32,000 bases of DNA from Candidatus Nitrospira inopinata (GCF_001458695.1 NZ_LN885086.1:2550001-2582000), one strand, 5' to 3'; positions 454 to 11,780 are shown, counted from the first letter of the stretch. Made by a program: numbers and translations. The notes: a model not told the origin generated them from the sequence alone.

Positions 454-772
454 CGAGAAGGGCGAAACGGCGTGCCGGTCAACAACAGATCGTCCAAATT
501 CCCTTCGTGAGAAAATAGAACGTACAACATGGTCCCATACAGCCGACCGGTTGATTTTCAAGGGCATCGGCTTGGCTTTCGGCATAGTTTCTTGAGTGAC
601 CGTGACACAGTTCAATCTGTTGGTCCTCCGTCCAGTGCTTCATAGCAACGAGAAAAAGCGGTAACTCGTTTACCTCCGGTCGATTCCTTCGTCAAAGGAC
701 CAGCGGCAGGGGTATGTCCAGAGGAGGATGGACTCGATACACACATCGTGCCTTGCCGCGAAATCCAACCGA

Positions 773-796
773 CGAGATCCCATCGTCGGGATCTCG
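773..796. promoter_or_regulatory. Perfect 9-bp inverted repeat CGAGATCCC-atcgtc-GGGATCTCG (operator or 5'-UTR hairpin) 8 nt upstream of the SD of the cupredoxin gene
   Basis: Read directly: arms at 773-781 and 788-796 with a 6-nt loop. SD AAGGAGG at 804-810, ATG at 816. Confidence 0.35.
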
Positions 797-815
797 CTAT
801 CACAAGGAGGGATGC

Positions 816-2648
816 ATGATCAGAGGGAGTCGAAGAATTCGATTGGTCGGGCGTGTATGGCTGGCTGGATTTCTAGTAAGTTTCGCGGGCTCGTCTTTCA
901 TCGGCGGGAGCGCATTGGCTGCCGACCCGCGGGTGGTGTTCGAATTGACGGATGAGCCGGGCGCATGGTTCAGAAACGCGGCGGGACCGGTCGCGGGATT
1001 TCAGGCCTTGGCGGTGGTGACGCCGGGAACCGAAGTGCGGTTTACGGGCAAGTCCAATACCGTTCATACTCGAACCAGCCTTCTTTTTCCGACCAGGGCC
1101 GTCAACATGCCCTTTGATACGCCGCACCGCAAAGGCTCCGATGACGTGATGCTCCATACTCCCGGCCTTTACGTCTTCACGTGCAAAATTCACCCCTACA
1201 TGTTCGGAGCGGTGATTGTAGATGATCCCGCGACGCCAGGGCTTGACCTCGGCGAATCCATCACCTTGCTGAACGGTGTCACCGTTCCAACCGGCAGCGA
1301 CCTTGCCACCCGTCTGCTGCGCACCTTTTTCATTGCAACCCATCCGTCGAACTGGTTGGATCACACCTCGCCGGCGCCCTGGCACATCACCTATCCCAAT
1401 GTGGATGTTCGTCTCACAGGAGGCGTCGTCGTGAATCTGGACAGAGTTCTGAGCGCCCGTTACGGCAACGATCTCCCCAAAGCTCCGCTCATGAATCCGG
1501 CCACCCCGGCTGTGGGAGAAATCTGGGTTGACACACAGTTTGAAAAAACCAGAGGCAAGACCAAGCCGGGAACGGCAACCGCCGTCAGCGGCCAAACCTG
1601 GAAACCGACCCGAAAGGTCGCCCTTCCCAGCATCAACATGAACAATCCGCACAATCTCTGGACGGATAAAAATCAAACCGTGATTTATCAAACGCAGTGG
1701 TTCGACAGTAAGCTTACGGTGTTCAACCGAACGACCGGCCAGTTTTTGAACAATATCTCCGTCGGCGAGTCGCCGGCCCACGTGATGACCAGAGTCGATA
1801 CGGATCAGGTCCACGTCACGGTGAACGGGGCACCGAATCACGACTCGGTCGTGGAACTCGCTCCCATGGCCATAGGCATTCAGCGACGAATCAACGTCGG
1901 TCGCGGTTACCCACACGCCCATTGGATGAGCCACGACGGCAAGAAAATGGTGACGCCGAACGTCTTTTCGTCCGACGCCACCCAGTACAATTTCTCGAAC
2001 AATTCCATCGATGCGATCTTCCCGGCCGGCATGATCCCTATTGCCACCGCCATGACGCCTGATTCGAAGAAGTCCTACGTGGCCAATCTGCTGGACAGCA
2101 CCATCACGGTCGTCGATACCCAAACCAAGAGGGTCGTCAAAACGATCAATCTGCTGGCCCACTATGATCCGATCAGTGGTGAGATCAGGGGGCCGGTCGG
2201 GGCATTGCCGATTCAAACGCCCGTCAGCCCTGATGGAAAGAGCATGATCACCGCCAATACCTTGAGCGCCACCATCACGGTCGTGGATCCAACCACGGAT
2301 TCGGTTGTGGCGATGTTGCCCTGCGATCCCGGTTGTCACGGTGTTCAGTATGGGGCCAAGCGGGGAGGAGGATACTACGCCTATGTGTCCAGTAAGTTTT
2401 CCAACGGCTTGATCATTGTCGATCCGGACCCCAACGGCGACGGCAATCCTGCCGACGCCGCCATCGTGGGGCGGATTGCCCTCACCGCGATTGCGACAAC
2501 GGCGACCGATGATGCCATCATCGGCAACCGTGGAATGGGAGGCCAGGGGGTGTTGGCGGTTCCGGTCGTCTATAACGGCTGGGTGCAAAATCTCCCGCAG
2601 AGCTGGAGGAATCAGTTGACGCCGGCGCAGCGGGATCCCCTCCGCTAA
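816..2648 (+). CDS. Exported cupredoxin (type-1 Cu, amicyanin-like CxxHxxM) fused to a YVTN-type beta-propeller repeat domain
   Basis: The track ORF 714..2648 is trimmed to ATG 816 (AAGGAGG at 804-810, 5-nt spacer). Signal peptide: MIRGSRRIRLVGRVWLAGFLVSFAGSSFIGGSALA. Candidate Cu ligands are H in NTVHT (1065-1067) and C-K-I-H-P-Y-M (1182-1202). Repeated motifs such as SPDGK..ITANTLSATITVVD and ANLLDSTITVVDTQT are typical of YVTN beta-propeller blades. Confidence 0.8.
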   Translation: MIRGSRRIRLVGRVWLAGFLVSFAGSSFIGGSALAADPRVVFELTDEPGAWFRNAAGPVAGFQALAVVTPGTEVRFTGKSNTVHTRTSLLFPTRAVNMPFDTPHRKGSDDVMLHTPGLYVFTCKIHPYMFGAVIVDDPATPGLDLGESITLLNGVTVPTGSDLATRLLRTFFIATHPSNWLDHTSPAPWHITYPNVDVRLTGGVVVNLDRVLSARYGNDLPKAPLMNPATPAVGEIWVDTQFEKTRGKTKPGTATAVSGQTWKPTRKVALPSINMNNPHNLWTDKNQTVIYQTQWFDSKLTVFNRTTGQFLNNISVGESPAHVMTRVDTDQVHVTVNGAPNHDSVVELAPMAIGIQRRINVGRGYPHAHWMSHDGKKMVTPNVFSSDATQYNFSNNSIDAIFPAGMIPIATAMTPDSKKSYVANLLDSTITVVDTQTKRVVKTINLLAHYDPISGEIRGPVGALPIQTPVSPDGKSMITANTLSATITVVDPTTDSVVAMLPCDPGCHGVQYGAKRGGGYYAYVSSKFSNGLIIVDPDPNGDGNPADAAIVGRIALTAIATTATDDAIIGNRGMGGQGVLAVPVVYNGWVQNLPQSWRNQLTPAQRDPLR

Positions 2649-2688
2649 TTTCCACCCCATCATCTCGTTCTCCGTGTATTGTCCAGGG

Positions 2689-2716
2689 CCGGCCTGCGGC
2701 GCCAGCCGCAGGCCGG
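2689..2716 (+). terminator. GC-rich hairpin (12-bp perfect stem, 4-nt loop) 41 nt after the stop of the cupredoxin gene
   Basis: CCGGCCTGCGGC-gcca-GCCGCAGGCCGG read directly. The following tract TTGCCTATCT is only weakly T-rich, so intrinsic-terminator status is uncertain. Confidence 0.4.
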
Positions 2717-2883
2717 TTGCCTATCTGCCGATTGAGCCTCCTTCGTTCTGAACATGGCCGTTTACCTCCGACGTCCCTGTTCGTCTAAGCCAACAGACCG
2801 GACAGAGAACATGATAGGGGTCTTTCACAATTGAACCGAACGCGATCAACTTTTTCTATGAGGTCAGCAAACGGGAGGAGACC

Positions 2884-4365
2884 ATGCGACAGGGAGGAGA
2901 GCTTTGCACAGTGTTGAGCATCGTCATCCTGGTCGGTTTTCTCGGCGGCTGCGGCAGCGGCGATTCGGTCTCGGCATCGGCAAGCGGTTCAGGCAGTGGT
3001 TCCGCCTCGGCGTCCGGGACGGTCACGGGGTTTGGGAGCCTGTTCGTCAACGGCAAACGATTTGAAACGGAGGGGGCGTCGGTGATGGTCGATGGACAGG
3101 CGGTGCCATCGTGCACGGTGAGCCGATCGAACACCTGCGGTCTGCAAGTGGGAATGACGGTCAAGGTGGCCGGTTCATTCGATGGCCCGTCATACCGAGC
3201 CACGGCGATCGTGCAGGAAGATATGCTTGAGGGACCGATCACAAGCAAGAGTCAGGAGACTTCTACCAGCGGGACTCTGACCGTTTTGGGGCAGACGGTC
3301 ATCGTTGATGAGACGACGCGGTTCGATTCGGGGATCAACCTTGACGCTCTGAATGTCGGTGACCTCATTGAGGTCAACGGCTTTGTCAAAGCGGATGGTG
3401 AGATCGTCGCCACCTTCATCGAGCGAAAGTCGGGAACCGGCTGTGGGCGCGATGGCTGCGAACTTAAGGGTTTTGTCACGAATCACGATCATGCCACGAT
3501 GAGATTCCAGATCGGTGGCTTGACCATCGTGTATGACCGCGATGGCATCCCGCCCGATACGGTGATTCAAGACTTGCCCTCTCCATCGGGCAATAATTGG
3601 AACGGCCTGTTCGTGGAGGTGAAGGGAACTAGGATTGAGGGGACGACACTCCACGCGATGAAGGTGGAACGAGAGCGAGAGAGGATTGGAAGTGCCGATG
3701 ACGTGGATTCCTTCGAGATCGAAGGACTTGTGACTCAGGCCGGCACTGCCAGCGGCCAGACGATCGAATTTATGATCGGAACGACGACGGTCAGGACGAC
3801 GGCCAATACTGAATTCCGAGGTGGAACAATCGACGAGATCGTGGTGGGGGCCAAACTCTCGGCCGAAGGCCGAGTCGTCAATGGGGTGCTCATCGCCAAG
3901 CAAGTGAAGTTCCACGAAAGTGTGCGGTTGGAAGGAGATGCGTCGGTCAGTGGCAATACCCTGACTTTGGCGGGATTGCCTGGCGTGACCGTCATCGTCA
4001 ACAGCCGGACGGAACTGCGAGACGGCGGAGACCGACTCTCCATCCATGATATGGATGGTCGCCATGTCAGGATCAGGGGACGGGTCGCGGGCGGATCTTC
4101 TGTGATCGCCACCCGTATTCAGCGAAGGTCGCCTGATTCCGATATTGTCCTTCAGGGGCCGGTGCAGGCGATCAACGGTGATGACATCGTGATCCTAGGC
4201 GTAACGGTCGACACCGGTACCATCAATCGATTTGAGAGTGTGAGCGGTTCGTCCGTGAGCCGGTCCTCATTCTTGGCGGAGGTCAGCGTGAATTCGATTG
4301 TAAAGGTGAAGGGTGAACGGCGAGGAGCGATCGTCTTCTGGGACGAAGCGGAATTGGAGGATTAA
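2884..4365 (+). CDS. Lipoprotein with about six tandem DUF5666-like domains
   Basis: SD GGGAGGAG at 2873-2880. Lipobox LGGC followed by an SGS-rich linker (GSGDSVSASASGSGSGSASASG). Repeated module pattern: G.V..FGS..V.G..F.T.....V.G / G..V.V.G.....G...A..I. Confidence 0.8.
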   Translation: MRQGGELCTVLSIVILVGFLGGCGSGDSVSASASGSGSGSASASGTVTGFGSLFVNGKRFETEGASVMVDGQAVPSCTVSRSNTCGLQVGMTVKVAGSFDGPSYRATAIVQEDMLEGPITSKSQETSTSGTLTVLGQTVIVDETTRFDSGINLDALNVGDLIEVNGFVKADGEIVATFIERKSGTGCGRDGCELKGFVTNHDHATMRFQIGGLTIVYDRDGIPPDTVIQDLPSPSGNNWNGLFVEVKGTRIEGTTLHAMKVERERERIGSADDVDSFEIEGLVTQAGTASGQTIEFMIGTTTVRTTANTEFRGGTIDEIVVGAKLSAEGRVVNGVLIAKQVKFHESVRLEGDASVSGNTLTLAGLPGVTVIVNSRTELRDGGDRLSIHDMDGRHVRIRGRVAGGSSVIATRIQRRSPDSDIVLQGPVQAINGDDIVILGVTVDTGTINRFESVSGSSVSRSSFLAEVSVNSIVKVKGERRGAIVFWDEAELED

Positions 4366-4420
4366 GACTAAAGAAGAACAGAGACCACCGACAGTGTCTT
4401 TTCACAAAAGGAGATGAACG

Positions 4421-5050
4421 ATGCGAGATCGGAGTTGGAAAGAATTGATTCTAGGAACCGTCACCGGCTTTGCTTTCCTGGTTTCGCCGGCAACCGGCGA
4501 AATGAATAATAGTGGAGATCAATCGGCTGTTCGTCTGGACAATCGTGGGCCCGGTTCGCTGAATAGCGGTCCTGGCTCGATCGACAGTGGACGTCACGAC
4601 GGCCGGTCCGGGCATCAGGAACGATATGGTCACAATCGTCTCATGCTGGCGCAGCGTGGCGATGACATTCGCCAAGAAGATCGACAGAAAGATCGGCGAG
4701 AAGAACGTCGAGAAGATCGCATGGACGATCGGAGGATCGAGCGCCGCGAGGATCGGCAAATCGATCGACGCGAAGATCGCCGAGATACGACACGATCAAA
4801 TGCGGGCGGCGAGCTGCGGGGGCTTGATCGGGCCGATCATGTCGCCGGTGATCATGGACGGGAGGGGCGGGATACCGCCCGTGCCGCCCAGATGGATCGG
4901 CTGAACAGACCGGAGCGAATCGAACGAGTGGAGAAAATTGAAAGGCCGGAACGACCGGACCGTCCGGAGAGGCCGGAAAAGGTTGAGCGGCCAGAACGGC
5001 CGGAGCGCCCAGAGCGACCGGAAAAGCCGGAGCGAGCGGGGCGAAACTGA
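4421..5050 (+). CDS. Secreted low-complexity protein with RED/R-rich block and C-terminal (P-E-R)n repeat tail
   Basis: SD AAAGGAG at 4407-4413 with a 7-nt spacer. N-terminal hydrophobic signal-like segment: LILGTVTGFAFLVSPATG. It sits co-directionally in a tight gene run. The competing antisense and other-frame ORFs are artefacts of the repeat. Confidence 0.6.
   Translation: MRDRSWKELILGTVTGFAFLVSPATGEMNNSGDQSAVRLDNRGPGSLNSGPGSIDSGRHDGRSGHQERYGHNRLMLAQRGDDIRQEDRQKDRREERREDRMDDRRIERREDRQIDRREDRRDTTRSNAGGELRGLDRADHVAGDHGREGRDTARAAQMDRLNRPERIERVEKIERPERPDRPERPEKVERPERPERPERPEKPERAGRN
4910..5035 (+). repeat. 14 tandem copies of a degenerate 9-bp unit (CCGGARCGN) encoding (P/I/V)-E-R triplets
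   Basis: Units read consecutively: ccggagcga atcgaacga gtggagaaa attgaaagg ccggaacga ccggaccgt ccggagagg ccggaaaag gttgagcgg ccagaacgg ccggagcgc ccagagcga ccggaaaag ccggagcga. Confidence 0.85.
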
Positions 5051-5238
5051 CGAACACCGTGTCTGGAAATTGTATGCTGATTGTCTGCTGAAGGGCGGGG
5101 TGCTGTAGTTTGGCATCCTGCCGATCCGTTATCAGGCGTGGTTTTCGTTGAAGCAGAACCACCTCTCGGTTATGGTACGTCTGCGTCATCCCCACAAGAA
5201 ACGCACAAACCATCAGTGATGAAAGGAGCAAGACATTC

Positions 5239-6162
5239 ATGGACAGGGTTCTGCATCGTCTCGGCATCGTGGTTGCCGTCATGATGATGAGCATGATCGG
5301 CTCTCAATCGAAGGCCGTGGCAGCCGGCGAGAAAGAAAAAATGGGGCCGGAGCAGCGACCCTCGGCCGAGCGCAACTGGCAAATTGGGGTCACCCCAAGC
5401 TATAGCAGTGGAAATTTCGGAACCGATGTCAGAAGCGACTTCGTTTATGTCCCCTTCTCGATCCGGCGCCTGTTCCGCGATGGAGACGTGACGGTCGTTG
5501 TGCCGTTTGTCTCGGTCACCAGTAACGGGACAGCCACCTTGGTCGGCGGCCAACCGACCCCCACGTTGCCGGGACGGTGTCTCAGGAGAAGCGGTACGGA
5601 GATCGATACCAGCAAGCCGGAATGTTTGGCTCTGCTGAATGCCGGTCAGGGAGTGACGGCGGGGGAGAAGGTGACCCATTCGGGGCTCGGTGACATCATT
5701 GTGAGGGGACGGTACTATGCCATCGAGGAAAAGGAGTGGTTCCCGCTCGTCGCACTCACGGCCCGGGTCAAAATTCCGACAGCCAGCGAAAGTAAAGGGC
5801 TTGGCACCGGCGCCCTTGACCATGGGTACGGCGTGGAACTGTCCAAAATGCTGGGCGATCGATGGATTGCGTTTCTCGACGGAGGCTACAACTTTATCGG
5901 CGACCCTGAGGGGAGAGAACTTCAAAACCAGTACTGGTTTGACGCCGGGGGCGGGCATTATCTCACCACACACCTCTTGTTCAGCGTGTATTATGAGGAG
6001 TACCGGTCGCTGGTGGCCGACCGGGTCAACATTCGCGACGTGTTCGTGGCGTTCAACTATAAATTCTCCGATGCCTGGCGATTCAACGGCGGCGTGACCG
6101 TCGGTCTGTCGAACAGTGCGCCGGATTACGGGGTATCGCTCGGCACCAACTATCGGTTTTAG
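5239..6162 (+). CDS. Outer-membrane beta-barrel protein (MetA-pathway/phenol-degradation-like transporter family)
   Basis: Signal peptide ending AVAA. Alternating beta-strand pattern, a GLGD motif (HSGLGDIIVRGRYY) and a C-terminal ...GTNYRF ending in Phe, as is typical for OMPs. The antisense ORF 5170..6183 has no such features. Confidence 0.7.
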   Translation: MDRVLHRLGIVVAVMMMSMIGSQSKAVAAGEKEKMGPEQRPSAERNWQIGVTPSYSSGNFGTDVRSDFVYVPFSIRRLFRDGDVTVVVPFVSVTSNGTATLVGGQPTPTLPGRCLRRSGTEIDTSKPECLALLNAGQGVTAGEKVTHSGLGDIIVRGRYYAIEEKEWFPLVALTARVKIPTASESKGLGTGALDHGYGVELSKMLGDRWIAFLDGGYNFIGDPEGRELQNQYWFDAGGGHYLTTHLLFSVYYEEYRSLVADRVNIRDVFVAFNYKFSDAWRFNGGVTVGLSNSAPDYGVSLGTNYRF

Positions 6163-6163
6163 C

Positions 6164-6189
6164 GGAACATCAATCCATTCCATGCCGTT
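6164..6189 (+). promoter_or_regulatory. Candidate ECF-type promoter (GGAAC-N17-CGTT) upstream of the ECF sigma gene
   Basis: GGAAC at 6164-6168 and CGTT at 6186-6189, with a 17-nt spacer between AAC and CGT. It lies 77 nt upstream of the sigma ORF. ECF sigma genes are commonly autoregulated from AAC/CGT-type promoters. Confidence 0.3.
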
Positions 6190-6277
6190 GACCTCTCATC
6201 TCTCCCTTCGTCTAATACATCAGATGAATCAGAGAGGACCGGCGGGCCGGCGATAGCGAGCAAAGGTGATGCCGCCA

Positions 6278-6859
6278 ATGCCGACCGATCGACGTGACGA
6301 CCCCACCGATGCCGAGTTGGTGGCGCGTAGTCTTGCTCGGGATCACGAGGCATTCGGACAGTTGATTGATCGGCACGCGGCCACGATCGTGAACCTGGCC
6401 TATCGGATGGTGGGGAACCAGGCCGAGGCCGAGGACTTGGCGCAGGAATCGTTCATCGCGGCGTTCCAAGCGCTCTCGACCTTTCGATCCGATTCCAAGT
6501 TTTCCACCTGGCTCTATCGGATCGCCTCAAACAAGTGTAAGGATTGGCTGCGAAGCAAAAAGCCCGGGCAGGGCCGGAACGATGTGAACGTAGACGAGGA
6601 ACTTGACCTCCACGTCATGGAGGAACAAACGCCGGAAACCTTGTTGTCTCAGCAACAAGTTGCCGGAGAATTGGAGCGGGCCATTCAACGGCTGCCGCTT
6701 CTCTATCGTGAGGCCTTCATCCTGAAACACATCGAAGGACTGAGCTATGAAGAAATGGAACAGGTCCTGGGTGTCAACAAAGACACACTGAAAATGCGGG
6801 TGTACAAGGGCAGGGTTCAACTGTGTCGAGAGCTTGCGGTTTTCAATCCCATGTCCTAG
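6278..6859 (+). CDS. RNA polymerase ECF-type sigma-70 family factor
   Basis: Region 2 motifs (AEDLAQESFIAAFQAL, FSTWLYRIASNKCKDWLR) and region 4 (LPLLYREAFILKHIEGLSYEEMEQVLGV..DTLKMRVYKGR). I prefer start ATG 6278 (AAGGTG at 6263-6268, 9-nt spacer). Alternatives are GTG 6266 and ATG 6269. Confidence 0.9.
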   Translation: MPTDRRDDPTDAELVARSLARDHEAFGQLIDRHAATIVNLAYRMVGNQAEAEDLAQESFIAAFQALSTFRSDSKFSTWLYRIASNKCKDWLRSKKPGQGRNDVNVDEELDLHVMEEQTPETLLSQQQVAGELERAIQRLPLLYREAFILKHIEGLSYEEMEQVLGVNKDTLKMRVYKGRVQLCRELAVFNPMS

Positions 6860-6880
6860 GTGGTCGGAGAAGGTAAGGCC

Positions 6881-7552
6881 ATGAGAGAAGACGATCTTAT
6901 TCAACGATTCTTGGACCATGAATTGACGCCGGACGAGCGGGTCGCGTTCCTCCGCGCGGTGGATGCCGATCCTTCCCTTCGTCGGCAGTGGCTCAATCTT
7001 GAGATGGTGGTGGCGGAGGCTGCTCGGCTGCCGAGGATTGCCCCCTCGGCCCGATTCATCAGCCAATTGAAAGAACGAACAAGGCCCAAGCCAAGCTTGT
7101 GGGCCGTACTCTGGGCCTCTGCCACCAGGCCGCGGATGCTTAACTGGAACCTGGCCCAGGCCATCGCGGCGGCCTGTGTGGTTCTGGTGGCGGTGGGAGC
7201 GCTCATCCGATTGGTTCCAGAACGGATTGTTGATACGCCGGTGCCGGCAGGGTCAATACAAACCATTTCATCCGAGGCGGCGGAGCCGAAGGTGCTGGTG
7301 CGGCTCGTGTTCGTGCAGCCTGATGCCCGATCGGTCTCGGTGGCGGGAGATTTCAACGGGTGGAATCCGGCGCGGACGACGCTCAAGCGAGCCGATGGCG
7401 GAATCTGGACCGTCACTCTGCTGCTCAAGCCCGGTCGTTATGAATACATGTTCGTGGTTGATGGGACACACTGGATCGCCGATCCGCTGGCGACGGAAGA
7501 GATCGGAGATGGATTCGGTTCACGCAACGCGGTGCTGGACGTGGAGATTTGA
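6881..7552 (+). CDS. Anti-sigma factor, single-pass membrane protein with C-terminal periplasmic CBM48/AMPK-beta-type glycogen-binding domain
   Basis: Lies immediately downstream of the ECF sigma gene. SD GGAGAAGG at 6866-6873, ATG at 6881. The N-terminal helix LIQRFLDHELTPDERVAFLRAV is typical of anti-sigma factors. TM segment: LAQAIAAACVVLVAVGALIRLV. C-terminal domain: VSVAGDFNGWNP...GIWTVTLLLKPGRYEYMFVVDGTHWIADP...GSRNAVLDV. Confidence 0.8.
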   Translation: MREDDLIQRFLDHELTPDERVAFLRAVDADPSLRRQWLNLEMVVAEAARLPRIAPSARFISQLKERTRPKPSLWAVLWASATRPRMLNWNLAQAIAAACVVLVAVGALIRLVPERIVDTPVPAGSIQTISSEAAEPKVLVRLVFVQPDARSVSVAGDFNGWNPARTTLKRADGGIWTVTLLLKPGRYEYMFVVDGTHWIADPLATEEIGDGFGSRNAVLDVEI

Positions 7553-7618
7553 TCATGAGCGGCCTTCTTGCAACCGATCCACGTCTCGATTACGCTCTTT
7601 CGCTCGAAGGAGCGGATT

Positions 7619-7993
7619 GTGCGATTCAATCGAGCCGTCATCATCGTCGGCGTGTGGGTCATCTGGCTGGCCGGCATCGGAGGCTGTACGGCAAACAAGG
7701 CAGGAAGCCCCACCCTCCCCAAACCACAGCCTGGGACTGTTCGATTTATGCTGGAGGCATCGGAAGCGACACGGGTCTCTCTTGTCGGGTCGTTTAACGG
7801 ATGGGCAAAAGACTCGATGCCGCTGAACCGTCTGAAGGGGACATCCTGGTGGTCGGTTGATGTGCCGCTCAGGGCGGGAGAGCACACCTTCATGTACGTG
7901 ATCGACGGAGTCAACTGGGTGACGCCTCCTCAAGCCGATGACTTTGTCGAAGACGAATTCGGCCAGAGAAATGGCGTCGTCATTGTCCGGTAA
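7619..7993 (+). CDS. Lipoprotein consisting of a single CBM48/AMPK-beta-type glycogen-binding module
   Basis: I chose GTG 7619 (GAAGGAG at 7606-7612, 6-nt spacer) rather than the track TTG at 7568. Signal plus lipobox: VIIVGVWVIWLAGIGGC. Mature part: VSLVGSFNGWAKD...WWSVDVPLRAGEHTFMYVIDGVNWVTPP...GQRNGVVIV. Confidence 0.7.
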   Translation: MRFNRAVIIVGVWVIWLAGIGGCTANKAGSPTLPKPQPGTVRFMLEASEATRVSLVGSFNGWAKDSMPLNRLKGTSWWSVDVPLRAGEHTFMYVIDGVNWVTPPQADDFVEDEFGQRNGVVIVR

Positions 7994-7997
7994 ATCG

Positions 7998-8984
7998 ATG
8001 AAGAGAATCCTTTACCTCTTACGACTGCTGGGAGTTGCAGGGGGGTTGGTTGCGGCTCAGGCCCTGGCCGAACCGCTCTCGGTTCAGGATCGGGAGGAAA
8101 TCGTGCGTTTGGGCTCAGCCCAGGGCCGTTCCGCAAGGGATCTTGATCCCCTGTTGGAGCAGGTGGGCAAAGTCGGCGAAAAGGGGTTTCCCACTGAGTC
8201 GATGGTGAACAAGGTGAAGGAGGGATTGGCCAAGGGTGTTGAGCCTCAGCGGATCGATCAGGTCTTGCGCCAGATGACGGAGCGATTGGAATCGGCCCAC
8301 GAAGTGTTGGAGGAGGCCAGGGCTCGTGGCATCGTGGAGGGAAACCGCCAGCGGGCATTGGAGGCCATGGCGGAAGCGCTCGCGCGGGGCGCCACCAAGG
8401 AAGAGGTGCGTGAATTGACCCGGATGTTCCTTGAGGGGAAACAGAAAGTGACACAGGACGTCTTGGCCGCCGGAGCCAAGGGCCTGGCGGTTATGAAAGA
8501 AGCCAACGTTTCTACAAAGGACGGAGCCGCTTTGCTCGGTGAAGGAATTCGCCAGGGGTATCGGGCGAACGAGTTGCTGGACTTGAGCCGGGAAGTAAAG
8601 CGCCGGGGCTCGGACTTCCAAGAAGGACGGGCCAGTCTCCAGCAGCTCCGCGAGCGGATTGGGCGTGGAGAAAAAAGTGATCGGTTGTTTCGAGAAGATC
8701 GAAGCGGATCCGGGAGCGGTGATCGGAGTGGTCGAGGAGATCGGGACCGTTCCGAACGAGACCGGTCTGAACAAGATCGGGCAGAACGGGATGGTCGAGC
8801 AGATCATCGAGCAGATCATGATGACCGAGGCGATCGAGGTGATCGAAAGGTACAGCAGGAACGGTACGAACGGATCGATAGACAGGATCGGTTTGAAAAA
8901 ATAGACCGATCCGATCGTCCGGAACGAATCGATCGTCTTGACCGTCCGGAACGGCCCGATCGTTCCGGGCGGGGACGAGATTGA
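7998..8984 (+). CDS. Secreted helical-repeat protein with C-terminal (D/E)R-rich low-complexity tail
   Basis: The track ORF 7938 is trimmed to ATG 7998, 4 nt after the previous stop, giving a clean signal peptide MKRILYLLRLLGVAGGLVAAQALA|EP. Internal helical repeats include KVKEGLAKGVEPQRIDQVL, MAEALARGATKEEVRELT and GEGIRQGYRANELLDLS. Tail: ...ERYERIDRQDRFEKIDRSDRPERIDRLDRPERPDRSGRGRD. Confidence 0.65.
   Translation: MKRILYLLRLLGVAGGLVAAQALAEPLSVQDREEIVRLGSAQGRSARDLDPLLEQVGKVGEKGFPTESMVNKVKEGLAKGVEPQRIDQVLRQMTERLESAHEVLEEARARGIVEGNRQRALEAMAEALARGATKEEVRELTRMFLEGKQKVTQDVLAAGAKGLAVMKEANVSTKDGAALLGEGIRQGYRANELLDLSREVKRRGSDFQEGRASLQQLRERIGRGEKSDRLFREDRSGSGSGDRSGRGDRDRSERDRSEQDRAERDGRADHRADHDDRGDRGDRKVQQERYERIDRQDRFEKIDRSDRPERIDRLDRPERPDRSGRGRD
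8694..8981 (+). repeat. Low-complexity coding repeat (GAY-CGN dominated; DR/ER/SG units)
   Basis: Read directly: EDRSGSGSGDRSGRGDRDRSERDRSEQDRAERDGRADHRADHDDRGDRGDR...DRPERIDRLDRPERPDR. It creates long spurious ORFs in other frames and on the other strand. Confidence 0.8.
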
Positions 8985-9092
8985 GAAGACCAGCGTATGC
9001 GCCCCAACCAACAGCGGCATCACTGTCTTCATGAATCGTGATAGTGAAGGGACCGGCGAACGTGCGCCGCTGTGTTGTCATCAGTAAGGTCC

Positions 9093-9101
9093 TGCTACAA
9101 T
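9093..9101 (+). promoter_or_regulatory. Extended -10 box TGcTACAAT, 6 nt upstream of ATG 9108 (leaderless-type promoter candidate)
   Basis: Read directly. The 6-nt gap (ggggcc) contains no SD. A possible -35, TTGTCA at 9075-9080, has a 15-nt spacer. Confidence 0.4.
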
Positions 9102-9107
9102 GGGGCC

Positions 9108-11780
9108 ATGGACATTATCGCCACGCACAGTCATGCCGACTTTGACGGCCTGGCCTCCATGGTGGCGGCGCGAAAACTGTTTCCGGACGCCAAGCTGGTC
9201 CTGCCGGCCGGGGCGCAGGAAACGGTGCGCAACTTCCTGGCCGTTCATGATTTGGGGTTGACGAAACTCAAGGACCTTGATCTTGATCAGGTTACTCGAT
9301 TGATCCTGGTCGATACCCAGGCCCCCTCTCGCCTTGGCTCTCTCAAATCCTGCATCGAAAATCCCGCCGTCGAAGTGGTGGTGTATGACCACCATCATGA
9401 GCCCGACTCGGTTTTCGCCGGCCGCTCCACGCAATCCGTTATCGAACCGGTCGGCGCGACGACGACGATTCTCGTCGAGCTGCTTCGACAACGCCGCGTG
9501 ACGATCACACCGTTCGAGGCGACCGTCATGGCCTTGGGCCTGTATGAAGAGACCGGATCGTTCGGCTTCTCCTCCACGACCGGTCGAGATTTGGAGGCGG
9601 GCGCCTTCCTCGTCGCCGCCGGCGCGGATCTGACGGTTGTGACGGATACACTCCGTCGCCCGCTCGATCCGGACGCCATTGCGCTCTTGAACGACCTGTT
9701 GGAACACAGCGAAGTGCATTACCTTGAAGGCCGCAAGGTGTTGGTGGCGACGAGCACCGTCGATCGCTGCCGGGGCGAAGCGGCCGGCGTCGTGCACATG
9801 CTCGCGGAATTGCAGGGCGTCGATGCGGTGATCGTCGCCGTGATGATGGATGATCGCGTGGAGGTGATCGGCCGAAGTCGCAGGCCGGAAATCGACGTGG
9901 GATGGATCGCGCGAGAATTCGGCGGCGGGGGCCATGCCGTGGCGGCGGCCGCGACGGTCAAACGCGCCACGCTCGCGGAAGTCAAAGAAAAGATGGTTCG
10001 TCTGCTGACGACGCACTATCGGCCGACCTTGCTGGCGCAGGATGTCATGACCAAGCCGGTCAAGGCCATCGAGGTGGATACAACGGTCAAGGAGGCGGGC
10101 GAACGGATGACGGCCTATGGGCTTAATGTGTTTCCCATTGTCGATGAGCAGGACCGGTATGTGGGGATCGTCAGCCGCGAATTGATTCAGAAGGCTTTGT
10201 TTCATCGCTTGGGGACCCTGCCGGTGCGCGAGATCATGCAGACCGACGCCTATACCGCCAAGGCGGAGACGCCGTTTCACAACATCGAAACGGCCATGAT
10301 CGAGCGCAACCAGCGGTTCGTTCCGATTCTGCAAGGAGACAAGATCGTCGGCGTCATCACCAGAACGGATCTCTTGCGGACCTTGCACGACGACGTGTTG
10401 AAGCCGGCCAGAATAAGGACCCTGAAAGCGGGCGAGACGGAGGTTGAAACCGGAAGACCGCGCCGCAACGTCACGTCGTTGTTGCGGAGCCGTTTGCCGC
10501 ATCGCGTGGTGGCGTTGCTGGAAGAAGCGGGACATCTGGCCGATCGCTGCGGCATATCGCTGTTCGTCGTCGGCGGCTGCGTGCGGGATCTGCTGCTGGG
10601 AATTGAAAACCTGGACCTTGATCTGGTCGTCGAAGGGGACGGGATCGCCTTCGCGCGTCGGCTCGCGCAGACATTGCACGCGCGGGTCAAGACGCACGAA
10701 CGGTTCGGGACGGCGATCCTCGTGCTGCCGGATGGATTCAGACTCGACGTGGCGACGGCCCGGACCGAGTACTATGAATATCCCACCGCGCTGCCCACCG
10801 TTGAGCAAAGTTCCATCAAGAAGGATCTGTATCGCCGCGATTTTACGATCAACGCGCTCGCGGTTCGGCTGAACGGCAAGGGGTTCGGGGACGTGTTGGA
10901 TTTCTACGGCGGGCAACGGGATTTGAACGACAAGGTGATCCGCGTCCTGCACGGGCTCAGTTTCGTCGAAGACCCGACGCGCGTGTTTCGCGCCATTCGG
11001 TTCGAGGCCCGGTTCGGCTTCCATTTGGGGCGGGATACCGCCGCCTTGATCGCCGGCGCCGTCAAGATGAACCTCTTCGACCGGCTGTCCGGTCACCGGT
11101 TGTTGGAAGAGCTCAAACTGTCGCTGTCCGAGCGGGAGCCGAAACAGATCATCAGACGCTGGGCGGAGTTCGATTTGCTCCGATTCATCCATCCTAAATT
11201 GAGTTGGTCCGATCGGTTGCGGACGTTGTTGGATTCCATTGAGCAGGTGGTCGATTGGTATCGGCTGTTGTACTTAAACCGCAAAATGGACGTTTGGTTG
11301 GTCTATATGACGGGGCTGTTGGAAATGTTGCCGGAACGGGCCGTGGCCGAGGTGCTCAAGCGATTCTCCTTTTCAGAGGCCGAGACGTCCACGCTTCGGT
11401 CGGTCCGCGGTGGATGCCGCGACGTCATGCGCCGGTTGGGACGGGCATCCACTCTCAAACCGGCGGACATCTATCGGCTCTTGTCCGGCCTTTCCGACGA
11501 GGCGCTGTTGGGTCTCATGGCCAAGAGCAAGGGCGATTTGGTGAAACGCCGGGTGTCGGCGTTCCTGACGACCTATCAACAGGTCAAGCCGATTCTATCC
11601 GGAACGGATTTGCAGGCGATGGGATTCAAGCCCGGACCGCAGTTTAAGGAAATCTTAAGCCGCTTGCTCGATGCGCGATTGAACGGAGAGGTGAAGACGG
11701 AAACGGAGGAGCGAACGTTCGTCCTACGTCTGGCGAAACCTTCGCGAGACTTGTCAGTTCAGCGGAAGAACCGTCATTGA
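9108..11780 (+). CDS. DHH/DHHA1 phosphoesterase - tandem CBS - CCA-adding/poly(A) polymerase-family tRNA nucleotidyltransferase fusion protein
   Basis: DHH motifs: IATHSHADFDGLAS, VLVDT, DHHH, and GGGHAVAAAA (the DHHA1 GGGH motif). Two CBS modules lie around aa 325-445. Nucleotidyltransferase head: FVVGGCVRDLLLG..NLDLDLVVEG, RRDFTINALA, EDPTRVFRAIRF. Start is set at ATG 9108 (MDIIATH). Confidence 0.85.
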   Translation: MDIIATHSHADFDGLASMVAARKLFPDAKLVLPAGAQETVRNFLAVHDLGLTKLKDLDLDQVTRLILVDTQAPSRLGSLKSCIENPAVEVVVYDHHHEPDSVFAGRSTQSVIEPVGATTTILVELLRQRRVTITPFEATVMALGLYEETGSFGFSSTTGRDLEAGAFLVAAGADLTVVTDTLRRPLDPDAIALLNDLLEHSEVHYLEGRKVLVATSTVDRCRGEAAGVVHMLAELQGVDAVIVAVMMDDRVEVIGRSRRPEIDVGWIAREFGGGGHAVAAAATVKRATLAEVKEKMVRLLTTHYRPTLLAQDVMTKPVKAIEVDTTVKEAGERMTAYGLNVFPIVDEQDRYVGIVSRELIQKALFHRLGTLPVREIMQTDAYTAKAETPFHNIETAMIERNQRFVPILQGDKIVGVITRTDLLRTLHDDVLKPARIRTLKAGETEVETGRPRRNVTSLLRSRLPHRVVALLEEAGHLADRCGISLFVVGGCVRDLLLGIENLDLDLVVEGDGIAFARRLAQTLHARVKTHERFGTAILVLPDGFRLDVATARTEYYEYPTALPTVEQSSIKKDLYRRDFTINALAVRLNGKGFGDVLDFYGGQRDLNDKVIRVLHGLSFVEDPTRVFRAIRFEARFGFHLGRDTAALIAGAVKMNLFDRLSGHRLLEELKLSLSEREPKQIIRRWAEFDLLRFIHPKLSWSDRLRTLLDSIEQVVDWYRLLYLNRKMDVWLVYMTGLLEMLPERAVAEVLKRFSFSEAETSTLRSVRGGCRDVMRRLGRASTLKPADIYRLLSGLSDEALLGLMAKSKGDLVKRRVSAFLTTYQQVKPILSGTDLQAMGFKPGPQFKEILSRLLDARLNGEVKTETEERTFVLRLAKPSRDLSVQRKNRH

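Follow-up and report, generated by a model that had tools for sequence, protein, structure and literature searches.

A 32,000-nucleotide stretch of the Candidatus Nitrospira inopinata genome (GCF_001458695.1, NZ_LN885086.1:2550001-2582000; the window in what follows) carries four adjacent genes for an extracytoplasmic function (ECF) sigma factor, a membrane anti-sigma factor whose predicted periplasmic domain belongs to carbohydrate-binding module family 48 (CBM48), a CBM48 lipoprotein, and a secreted helical protein that we call g4. The sigma gene, the anti-sigma-CBM48 gene and g4 are the conserved core of a module, and g4 is its obligatory genomic partner in at least six phyla. The module is more widespread and better defined than is visible from the window alone. 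The reading that we favour, at somewhat better than an even chance, is that of a conserved envelope-signalling module built on the ECF sigma/anti-sigma scheme and gated by a glycan, with g4 and a second CBM48 protein as modulators.

The four open reading frames (ORFs) are all on the + strand, and their coordinates are those of the ORF calls. The sigma gene (6266-6859) encodes 197 aa. The anti-sigma gene extends from an ATG at 6881 to 7552, the lipoprotein gene from a GTG at 7619 to 7993, and g4 from an ATG at 7998 to 8984. An in-frame GTG at 6860 of the anti-sigma ORF abuts the sigma stop codon, and the gap between the two genes is 0-21 nt, depending on the anti-sigma start. An earlier reading made from the sequence alone (the sequence-only reading) had described four co-directional, tightly packed genes, which are indeed present with the coordinates and spacings it gave. 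The closest homologues (62-97% identity) are all from Nitrospira sp., and annotation pipelines label the proteins as 'isoamylase early set domain-containing protein', 'glycoside hydrolase family 13' and 'anti-sigma factor RsiW'.

The anti-sigma factor matches the Pfam families AMPK1_CBM (39.3 bits, cut-off 26.8) and CBM_48 (39.0 bits, cut-off 22.4), and its hydropathy indicates a single transmembrane segment at about residues 88-110. Profile A1, built from 16 full-length members of the family whose identity to the window protein is 35-65%, aligns at its positions 6-73 with residues 9-76 of RsiW, in the domain that binds sigma (5wuq_C, E = 5.7e-7). The C-terminal part of the same profile matches the CBM48 modules of a pullulanase, of GlgB enzymes and of AMPK beta. 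The AlphaFold model has helices at residues 3-66, one transmembrane helix, some 30 aa of disordered linker and a C-terminal beta-sandwich (aa ~138-223), with a predicted local distance difference test score (pLDDT) of about 80 in the CBM part. Foldseek searches with the sandwich return the CBMs of SEX4 and AMPK beta at E = 2.8e-6, including AMPK beta1 and beta2. Against the isolated AMPK beta1 CBM (1z0m) Foldseek gives a template modelling (TM) score of 0.79 and a root-mean-square deviation of about 2.7 A. By homology and structure prediction, the sole periplasmic domain of the anti-sigma factor is a beta-sandwich of the CBM48 fold, carried by a flexible linker some 30 residues long. The pairing of an ECF sigma factor with an anti-sigma factor bearing a CBM48/AMPK-beta periplasmic domain, as proposed from the sequence alone, is one on which Pfam, the RsiW and CBM48 profile matches and Foldseek agree.

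The cytoplasmic part of the anti-sigma factor has no Cys in residues 1-85 and thus no HxxxCxxC zinc motif. The NCBIfam model NF052375 'antisigma' is matched below threshold in all family members examined. A homologue from Atribacterota (L010) has a zf-HC2 domain (3.6e-8) fused to AMPK1_CBM. Because L010 carries zf-HC2 and the window N-terminus lacks Cys, the family is of the anti-sigma domain (ASD) type, with the window protein not itself a zinc anti-sigma factor. On its sequence, the window protein is placed as a class I ASD-type family member with an RsiW-like N-terminus. A scan of viral contigs with the window protein found no relatives of the anti-sigma factor. The wider bacterial family of CBM48-like domains is large (10,957 representative clusters at E ≤ 0.001), and tandem arrays are frequent in it. 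Commonly there are four copies in proteins of about 480 aa, and up to 18 matched stretches occur in a protein of 1812 aa.

The sigma factor exceeds the Pfam gathering thresholds for Sigma70_r2 (80.1 bits, 1e-22) and Sigma70_r4_2 (50 bits, 2.3e-13), and it scores 110.6 bits against the NCBIfam model TIGR02937 sigma70-ECF (cut-off 42.9). The 197-aa protein consists of sigma-2 and sigma-4 domains only, as fits the definition of ECF (group 4) sigma factors, and its sequence places it in that family. The nearest solved structures are those of SigW (9.8e-29), 6in7_B and 8z6g_B (both ~9e-27), Mycobacterium tuberculosis SigE (2e-25) and RpoE (3e-24). No NCBIfam equivalog is matched at its cut-off, the best being PRK11922 (142.5 bits vs 204) and SigW (138 vs 209). 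The main text of Casas-Pastor et al. 2021 (PMC7826278) contains nothing relevant to the ECF group of this sigma factor.

Relatives were collected by scanning one genome per GTDB species, which gave 80 loci with a related CBM48 domain (cited here by L numbers). The ORFs called in these loci were searched first for matches to the window proteins and afterwards with a g4 profile. In 26 loci the sigma gene is directly followed by a gene for an anti-sigma-CBM48 protein of about 180-230 aa, and the adjacency of the sigma gene and its co-directional cognate anti-sigma gene is thus kept in several phyla. In all 26 loci a member of the g4 family follows within a few genes, mostly as the direct neighbour. 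Four further loci in which the sigma gene is cut off or spaced differently (L007, L014, L016 and L041) also have g4, so that the gene is present in 30/30 module loci. It occurs in 0 of the approximately 53 loci that have only other CBM48 proteins. The g4 profile was trained on 13 of the g4 sequences found; independent members (e.g. those of L012, L020, L022, L027, L028 and L031) match it at 1e-30 to 1e-42, and that of L046 matches weakly (1e-4). The module loci are from Nitrospirota, Gemmatimonadota (including Longimicrobiales), Atribacterota, Myxococcota (Anaeromyxobacteraceae), Acidobacteriota and Bipolaricaulota.

Within Nitrospira a longer gene order is conserved, down to 65% anti-sigma identity. 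It comprises a DUF5666 lipoprotein, a charged secreted protein, a Phenol_MetA_deg barrel, the sigma factor, the anti-sigma factor, the CBM48 lipoprotein, g4 and a DHH-CBS-CCA/polyA-polymerase fusion. The four-gene order to which the sequence-only reading pointed is therefore kept in Nitrospira; across phyla g4 is kept and the lipoprotein is not. One locus of the Gemmatimonadales (L019) has a second g4 paralogue (4234-4956) and, right after the module, a gene for an S41 tail-specific protease with a PDZ domain (5111-6583). This S41/PDZ protease was considered as a site-1 protease component and rejected, as it is found in L019 and in no other locus.

The g4 protein has a signal peptide cleaved between AQALA and EP, a helical domain of about 210 residues (aa ~25-235) and a disordered tail rich in Arg, Asp and Glu. 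Its AlphaFold model, calculated from 37 sequences that include Atribacterota and a distant Nitrospirota lineage, is all-alpha with 12 helices (pLDDT 85.4, predicted TM score 0.76). The signal peptide and the model agree with the description of the fourth gene product, from the sequence alone, as a secreted helical-repeat protein. The best-conserved motif of the family is GLPxEPLxxKxxEGxAKGVxxxRI. The tail is always of low complexity, with Arg/Asp/Glu in Nitrospira, Pro/Gly in Gemmatimonadota and Ser/Thr/Pro/Glu in Atribacterota. Searches for known relatives of g4 gave no significant match. In the PDB the best Foldseek hits are designed helical repeats at a TM score of about 0.3, and the g4 profile reaches EpsF at a non-significant 0.014. 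Pfam searches with 13 diverse members gave insignificant matches only (T2SSF in 4 members, E ≥ 0.06), NCBIfam gave none, and every source name is 'hypothetical protein'. The g4 tail (8700-8984) shares (E/D)RPERP-type Arg/Asp/Glu repeats, with DNA tandem repeats beneath them, with the 209-aa charged protein encoded at 4421-5050. In L005 the g4 orthologue matches the charged secreted protein at 1e-4.

The lipoprotein matches AMPK1_CBM (37.2 bits, 3.3e-9) and CBM_48 (32.3 bits), both above the Pfam gathering thresholds. Its lipobox is LAGIGG/C (the slash preceding the lipobox Cys), and this Cys is kept in 8/8 Nitrospira orthologues, with Ala or Thr at +2. The mature part consists of a linker of about 17 aa and one CBM48 domain, which is 36% identical to that of the window anti-sigma factor. 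Pfam, the lipobox and this identity bear out the earlier description of the third gene product as a lipoprotein with a paralogous copy of the sensor domain, and the families read from the sequence (AMPK1_CBM/CBM_48 in both proteins, Sigma70_r2/r4_2 in the sigma factor) all exceed their gathering thresholds.

The claim that sensor and lipoprotein co-sensor form a conserved core did not hold. Many lineages have a second CBM48 protein, which in Nitrospira is a lipoprotein of about 125-140 aa. In Gemmatimonadota and Anaeromyxobacteraceae a larger protein of about 360-550 aa with a C-terminal CBM48 domain and an N-terminal region without assignment takes its place (in Gemmatimonadota one unrelated to the lipoprotein), and the Atribacterota loci have none. 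In Gemmatimonadota (L013 6316-7446, L041 6872-8038, and similar) the N-terminal region without family match is about 300 aa long. The Nitrospira lipoprotein domain is 36-38% identical to the anti-sigma CBM48 and only 28% identical to the second CBM48 of Gemmatimonadota, and for this reason the 'co-sensor' is not one orthologous component.

The residues that could contact a sugar were compared with those of rat AMPK beta1, in which W100, K126, W133, L146 and T148 make direct carbohydrate contacts and their mutation lowers glycogen binding (McBride et al., PMC2642990). The alignment comprised the CBM48 domains of 26 anti-sigma factors, all from module loci, and of 16 second CBM48 proteins. Trp occupies the W100 position in every one of them (26/26 and 16/16, respectively) and the W133 position in nearly all (24/26 and 15/16). 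The L146 position holds Phe, Tyr or Leu throughout the anti-sigma domains (26/26), and in the second proteins one of these or Trp (16/16); the N150 equivalent is Asn in 20/26 anti-sigma domains. In the window anti-sigma factor the corresponding residues are W161 (W100), M190 (K126), W198 (W133), F212 (L146), S214 (T148) and N216 (N150). The alignment indicates that the aromatic stacking platform is constrained and that the polar contacts of the glycogen site are lost. The nearly invariant Trp-Trp pair sustains the earlier expectation of an aromatic sugar-binding platform. Because this platform is kept and the polar contacts are not, a glycan is a plausible ligand of the CBM48 domain; specificity for glycogen or another alpha-1,4-glucan cannot be assumed, and the alignment does not support it. 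A ligand other than a sugar might also bind to this face.

Alignment of the sigma-upstream regions of seven Nitrospira loci identified a candidate promoter consisting of GTT(T/G)AC, a variable 16-nt spacer and CGTCTAA. In the window this promoter, P1 (GTTGAC-N16-CGTCTAA; 6187-6215, + strand), is 50 nt upstream of the sigma gene, and it is kept in L001, L005, L084, L085 and L086. The motif is present once more in each Nitrospira locus, always ahead of the upstream operon. The window copy, P2 (GTTTAC-N16-CGTCTAA; 2760-2788, + strand), precedes the DUF5666 operon, and P2 has the homologous intergenic position in L001, L005 and L084-L087. A third copy in the window (GTTTAC-N16-CGTCAAA; 668-696, + strand), one -10 base off the consensus, is 18 nt upstream of the ORF at 714-2648. 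In the 11 aligned intergenic regions only the GTTxAC and CGTCTAA boxes are invariant, and the spacer is fixed at 16 nt. The pattern GTT[TG]AC-N16-CGTC[TA]AA has 3 matches in the window, each lying on the + strand ahead of a + gene, vs 0.002 expected from first-order Markov random sequences, of which 0/1000 had three matches.

The sequence-only reading had placed the promoter at 6164-6189. That candidate (GGAAC-N16/17-CGTT) has 3 matches vs 1.58 expected, which is chance level, and is not conserved in relatives; P1, the conserved candidate, overlaps its 3' end. A general scan of 600-9300 for sigma-70 promoters and terminators found nothing beyond shuffled expectation. In L001, L085, L086 and L087 the P2-type motif stands before an extra gene of 146 aa (3572-4012 in L001), which has no Pfam match and lies between P2 and the DUF5666 gene; this gene, which many Nitrospira have, is missing from the window and from L084.

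P1 is probably autoregulatory for the sigma operon. Because its motif recurs at 2760-2788 and 668-696, the upstream envelope genes probably belong to the regulon of the sigma factor. All putative members are on the + strand. The ORF at 714-2648, assigned on the promoter motif alone, encodes a secreted beta-propeller protein of 644 aa (Pfam YNCE, 2.5e-8) that is a relative of the Methanosarcina surface-layer protein 1l0q (1.6e-24); the propeller is also related to hydrazine synthase beta. Its translation has an N-terminal FTCKIHPYMFG, a cupredoxin-like C-x2-H-x2-M that looks like the Cys/His/Met motif of type-1 copper proteins. Behind P2 are the gene for a DUF5666 lipoprotein (2884-4365) with five repeats (Pfam 7.7e-45) and the lipobox LGG/C, syntenic in all Nitrospira loci, and that for the charged secreted protein of 209 aa (4421-5050), which is an Arg/Asp/Glu-rich protein of low complexity without Pfam match and has orthologues in L001 and L005 at 2e-64 to 3e-64. 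The last is a gene for an outer-membrane beta-barrel of the Phenol_MetA_deg family (5239-6162; PF13557, 6.1e-12), syntenic in Nitrospira. Pfam searches of the window genes found no glycoside hydrolase or sugar-uptake gene behind the conserved promoters, and the apparent regulon is one of envelope proteins, free of carbohydrate-use genes.

Directly downstream of g4 (9072-11780, + strand) is a gene for a 902-aa fusion of a DHH-DHHA1 phosphoesterase, two CBS domains and a PolyA_pol/CCA-adding nucleotidyltransferase. Most Nitrospira loci keep this gene in place; the ORF calls for L085 and L086 contain just the nucleotidyltransferase part (442 aa). Upstream of the cluster in L001 (1-3386) are genes for a family-2 glycosyltransferase with faint chitin-synthase-like matches and for a tetratricopeptide repeat (TPR) protein with a YaiO-type barrel match. 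This glycosyltransferase/TPR set, present ahead of the cluster in some Nitrospira and not in the window, resembles an exopolysaccharide synthesis and export set.

In the glycan-gated mechanism that we favour, the CBM48 domain would bind a glycan of the cell's own envelope or matrix through the Trp-Trp platform, and an alpha-1,4-glucan would not be required. The g4 protein and the second CBM48 protein would modulate this interaction or compete for it. Altered occupancy would expose the anti-sigma factor to regulated proteolysis, as in SigW/RsiW and RpoE/RseA, and the freed sigma factor would transcribe its own operon and the neighbouring envelope genes. SigW, M. tuberculosis SigE and E. coli RpoE are set free by regulated proteolysis of their anti-sigma factors, and proteolytic release is proposed here because these are among the nearest solved sigma factors. 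Nitrospira lives as a chemolithoautotroph by oxidising nitrite, and glycogen is found in the cytoplasm; for these reasons, and because the apparent regulon has no carbohydrate-use genes, a self-made envelope or matrix glycan is favoured over a nutrient alpha-glucan.

Several observations weigh against this mechanism. The whole-chain AlphaFold model of the anti-sigma factor is of low confidence (pLDDT 65). Fold matches of the sandwich include feruloyl-esterase CBM48 structures, one of them solved with xylobiose, and CBM48 folds also form protein contacts, while some bind glycans other than alpha-glucans. Lys is never found at the K126 position, which holds Met, Ala, Ser or Thr, and the T148 position varies. 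The promoter motif was defined post hoc, with two of its three sites independently conserved across genomes, and the regions upstream of sigma genes in other phyla have no consistent match to the Nitrospira motif. No conserved site-1 protease gene is found near the module in the loci examined. A protein ligand would explain the strict co-occurrence with g4 just as well. If g4 were that ligand, CBM48 would be a protein-interaction module and g4 an RseB-like periplasmic co-regulator that keeps proteases away from the C-terminus of the anti-sigma factor. Damage to the envelope, which g4 would sense through its helical domain or its tail, would then remove g4, and the lipoprotein CBM48 would be a decoy that titrates it. 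This is the main rival explanation, and as a whole we regard it as possible but doubtful. It accounts for g4 being the sole partner that is always present and that is never found with other CBM48 proteins, and it is consistent with the loss of the AMPK beta polar sugar contacts, with an apparent regulon of envelope proteins instead of carbohydrate use, and with the proximity of the sigma factor to the envelope-stress sigma factors SigW, SigE and RpoE. However, the sugar-stacking Trp pair is nearly invariant in both sets of CBM48 domains, as a retained lectin site would be, and g4 has no similarity to RseB/MucB or to any known family.

The sequence-only reading took the anti-sigma factor and the lipoprotein as a sensor and co-sensor of an alpha-glucan or of another polysaccharide of the envelope or the cell's surroundings. 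In its narrower form, the pair would respond to an alpha-1,4-glucan such as glycogen, starch or maltodextrin, by analogy with the CBM-bearing RsgI proteins of cellulolytic clostridia. The glycan-sensing part of the reading is sustained by the Trp platform and weakened by the loss of the K126 and T148 contacts and the lack of carbohydrate-use genes in the apparent regulon. The top sequence and fold matches (AMPK beta, SEX4, GlgB and a pullulanase) are to alpha-glucan-binding CBM48 modules, which together with the kept platform would suit such a ligand, and polysaccharide-sensing anti-sigma factors that bear CBMs exist (PMC10328401, PMC6852018). We nevertheless consider this narrower reading very unlikely, since the equivalents of K126 and T148 are not kept, the lipoprotein is not a conserved component outside Nitrospira, and neither a glycoside hydrolase nor a sugar-uptake gene follows the conserved promoters. 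The autotrophic host and the location of glycogen in the cytoplasm, away from a periplasmic domain, also argue against it.

A further and unlikely arrangement is a trans-envelope device of three proteins. Paralogous CBM48 domains, held by short linkers on the inner membrane (the anti-sigma factor) and on the outer membrane (the lipoprotein, or in Gemmatimonadota the larger protein ending in CBM48), would bind to one shared partner, which could be g4 or else a strand of glycan such as peptidoglycan or a polymer of the periplasm or matrix. The sigma factor would learn of the integrity or spacing of the envelope through partner switching, with one sensor domain mimicking the other, or through a bridge that spans the periplasm. 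If this were true, g4 would be the founding member of a new periplasmic signalling family.

ECF sigma factors rank with the commonest signalling devices of bacteria, yet most of their groups have no known input, and ECF systems with unexplored sensor domains are common. The module described here combines a recognisable lectin-type input domain with a strictly linked partner from an undescribed family. In Nitrospira its promoter motif can be read from the sequence, and the candidate regulon is a compact set of envelope proteins. This legible regulon, together with a core of three genes that is strictly kept across distant phyla, opens the module to direct tests. Its hosts include Nitrospira, a key nitrifier, and poorly studied Gemmatimonadota, Atribacterota, Acidobacteriota and Anaeromyxobacteraceae, and the module is therefore a well-defined system for asking what these organisms monitor in their envelopes. 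If the CBM48 domain binds a glycan, CBM-based sensing by anti-sigma factors would extend from clostridial sigma-I/RsgI to the ECF systems of diderms. Should g4 be the ligand, the domain would exemplify a CBM fold that has been taken over for signalling between proteins. Literature searches for an anti-sigma factor with CBM48 or AMPK1_CBM, or for a Nitrospira ECF module, found nothing pertinent, in line with the earlier remark that no experimentally dissected ECF system with this input domain is known.

Among known systems, SigW/RsiW of Bacillus subtilis is close in both proteins. SigW is the nearest solved sigma factor, RsiW matches the N-terminal anti-sigma profile, the anti-sigma factor is single-pass, and the two genes adjoin. 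RsiW is a class I anti-sigma factor from which SigW is freed by regulated intramembrane proteolysis. Unlike RsiW, the window protein has no HxxxCxxC motif, and its extracytoplasmic domain, a CBM48 fold, has no relation to the RsiW one. Here g4 and the CBM48 lipoprotein come in as additional secreted partners, and release is only inferred. The RpoE-RseA-RseB-RseC system of E. coli and the AlgU-MucA-MucB system of Pseudomonas share the operon plan of a sigma factor, a membrane anti-sigma factor and one or more periplasmic accessory proteins, as well as a related sigma factor (RpoE) and a regulon, here apparent, of envelope proteins. They differ in that a folded lectin-type beta-sandwich takes the place of the RseA tail and in the promoter, which here is GTTTAC-N16-CGTCTAA. 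Neither the lipoprotein nor g4 has a MucB_RseB or RseC family match in Pfam or NCBIfam, and they are thus not of the RseB family.

The RsgI proteins of clostridia are anti-sigma factors with C-terminal CBM3, CBM42, PA14 or glycoside hydrolase domains, which relay polysaccharide binding to sigma-I (PMC10328401, PMC6852018). The resemblance to the present module, a membrane anti-sigma factor with an extracytoplasmic carbohydrate-binding-module fold, is functional only. Here the sigma factor is of the ECF type, the CBM is of another family, most hosts are diderms and the regulon has no carbohydrate-active enzymes. There is also no RsgI N-domain and no autoproteolytic SEAL/periplasmic domain, only the linker of about 30 aa, so that the protein is not of the RsgI family. 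The CBM of the eukaryotic AMPK beta subunit, a CBM48 that acts as an allosteric sensor of glycogen, differs in being only about 25% identical, in having the K126/T148 contacts that are lost here, and in its setting, since the domain here is periplasmic and membrane-tethered and its output is a sigma factor and not a kinase. The fold is nevertheless the same, the W100 and W133 equivalents are kept and the L146 position stays hydrophobic or aromatic. AMPK beta provides the precedent for a CBM48 domain that regulates and does not merely target (PMC2642990).

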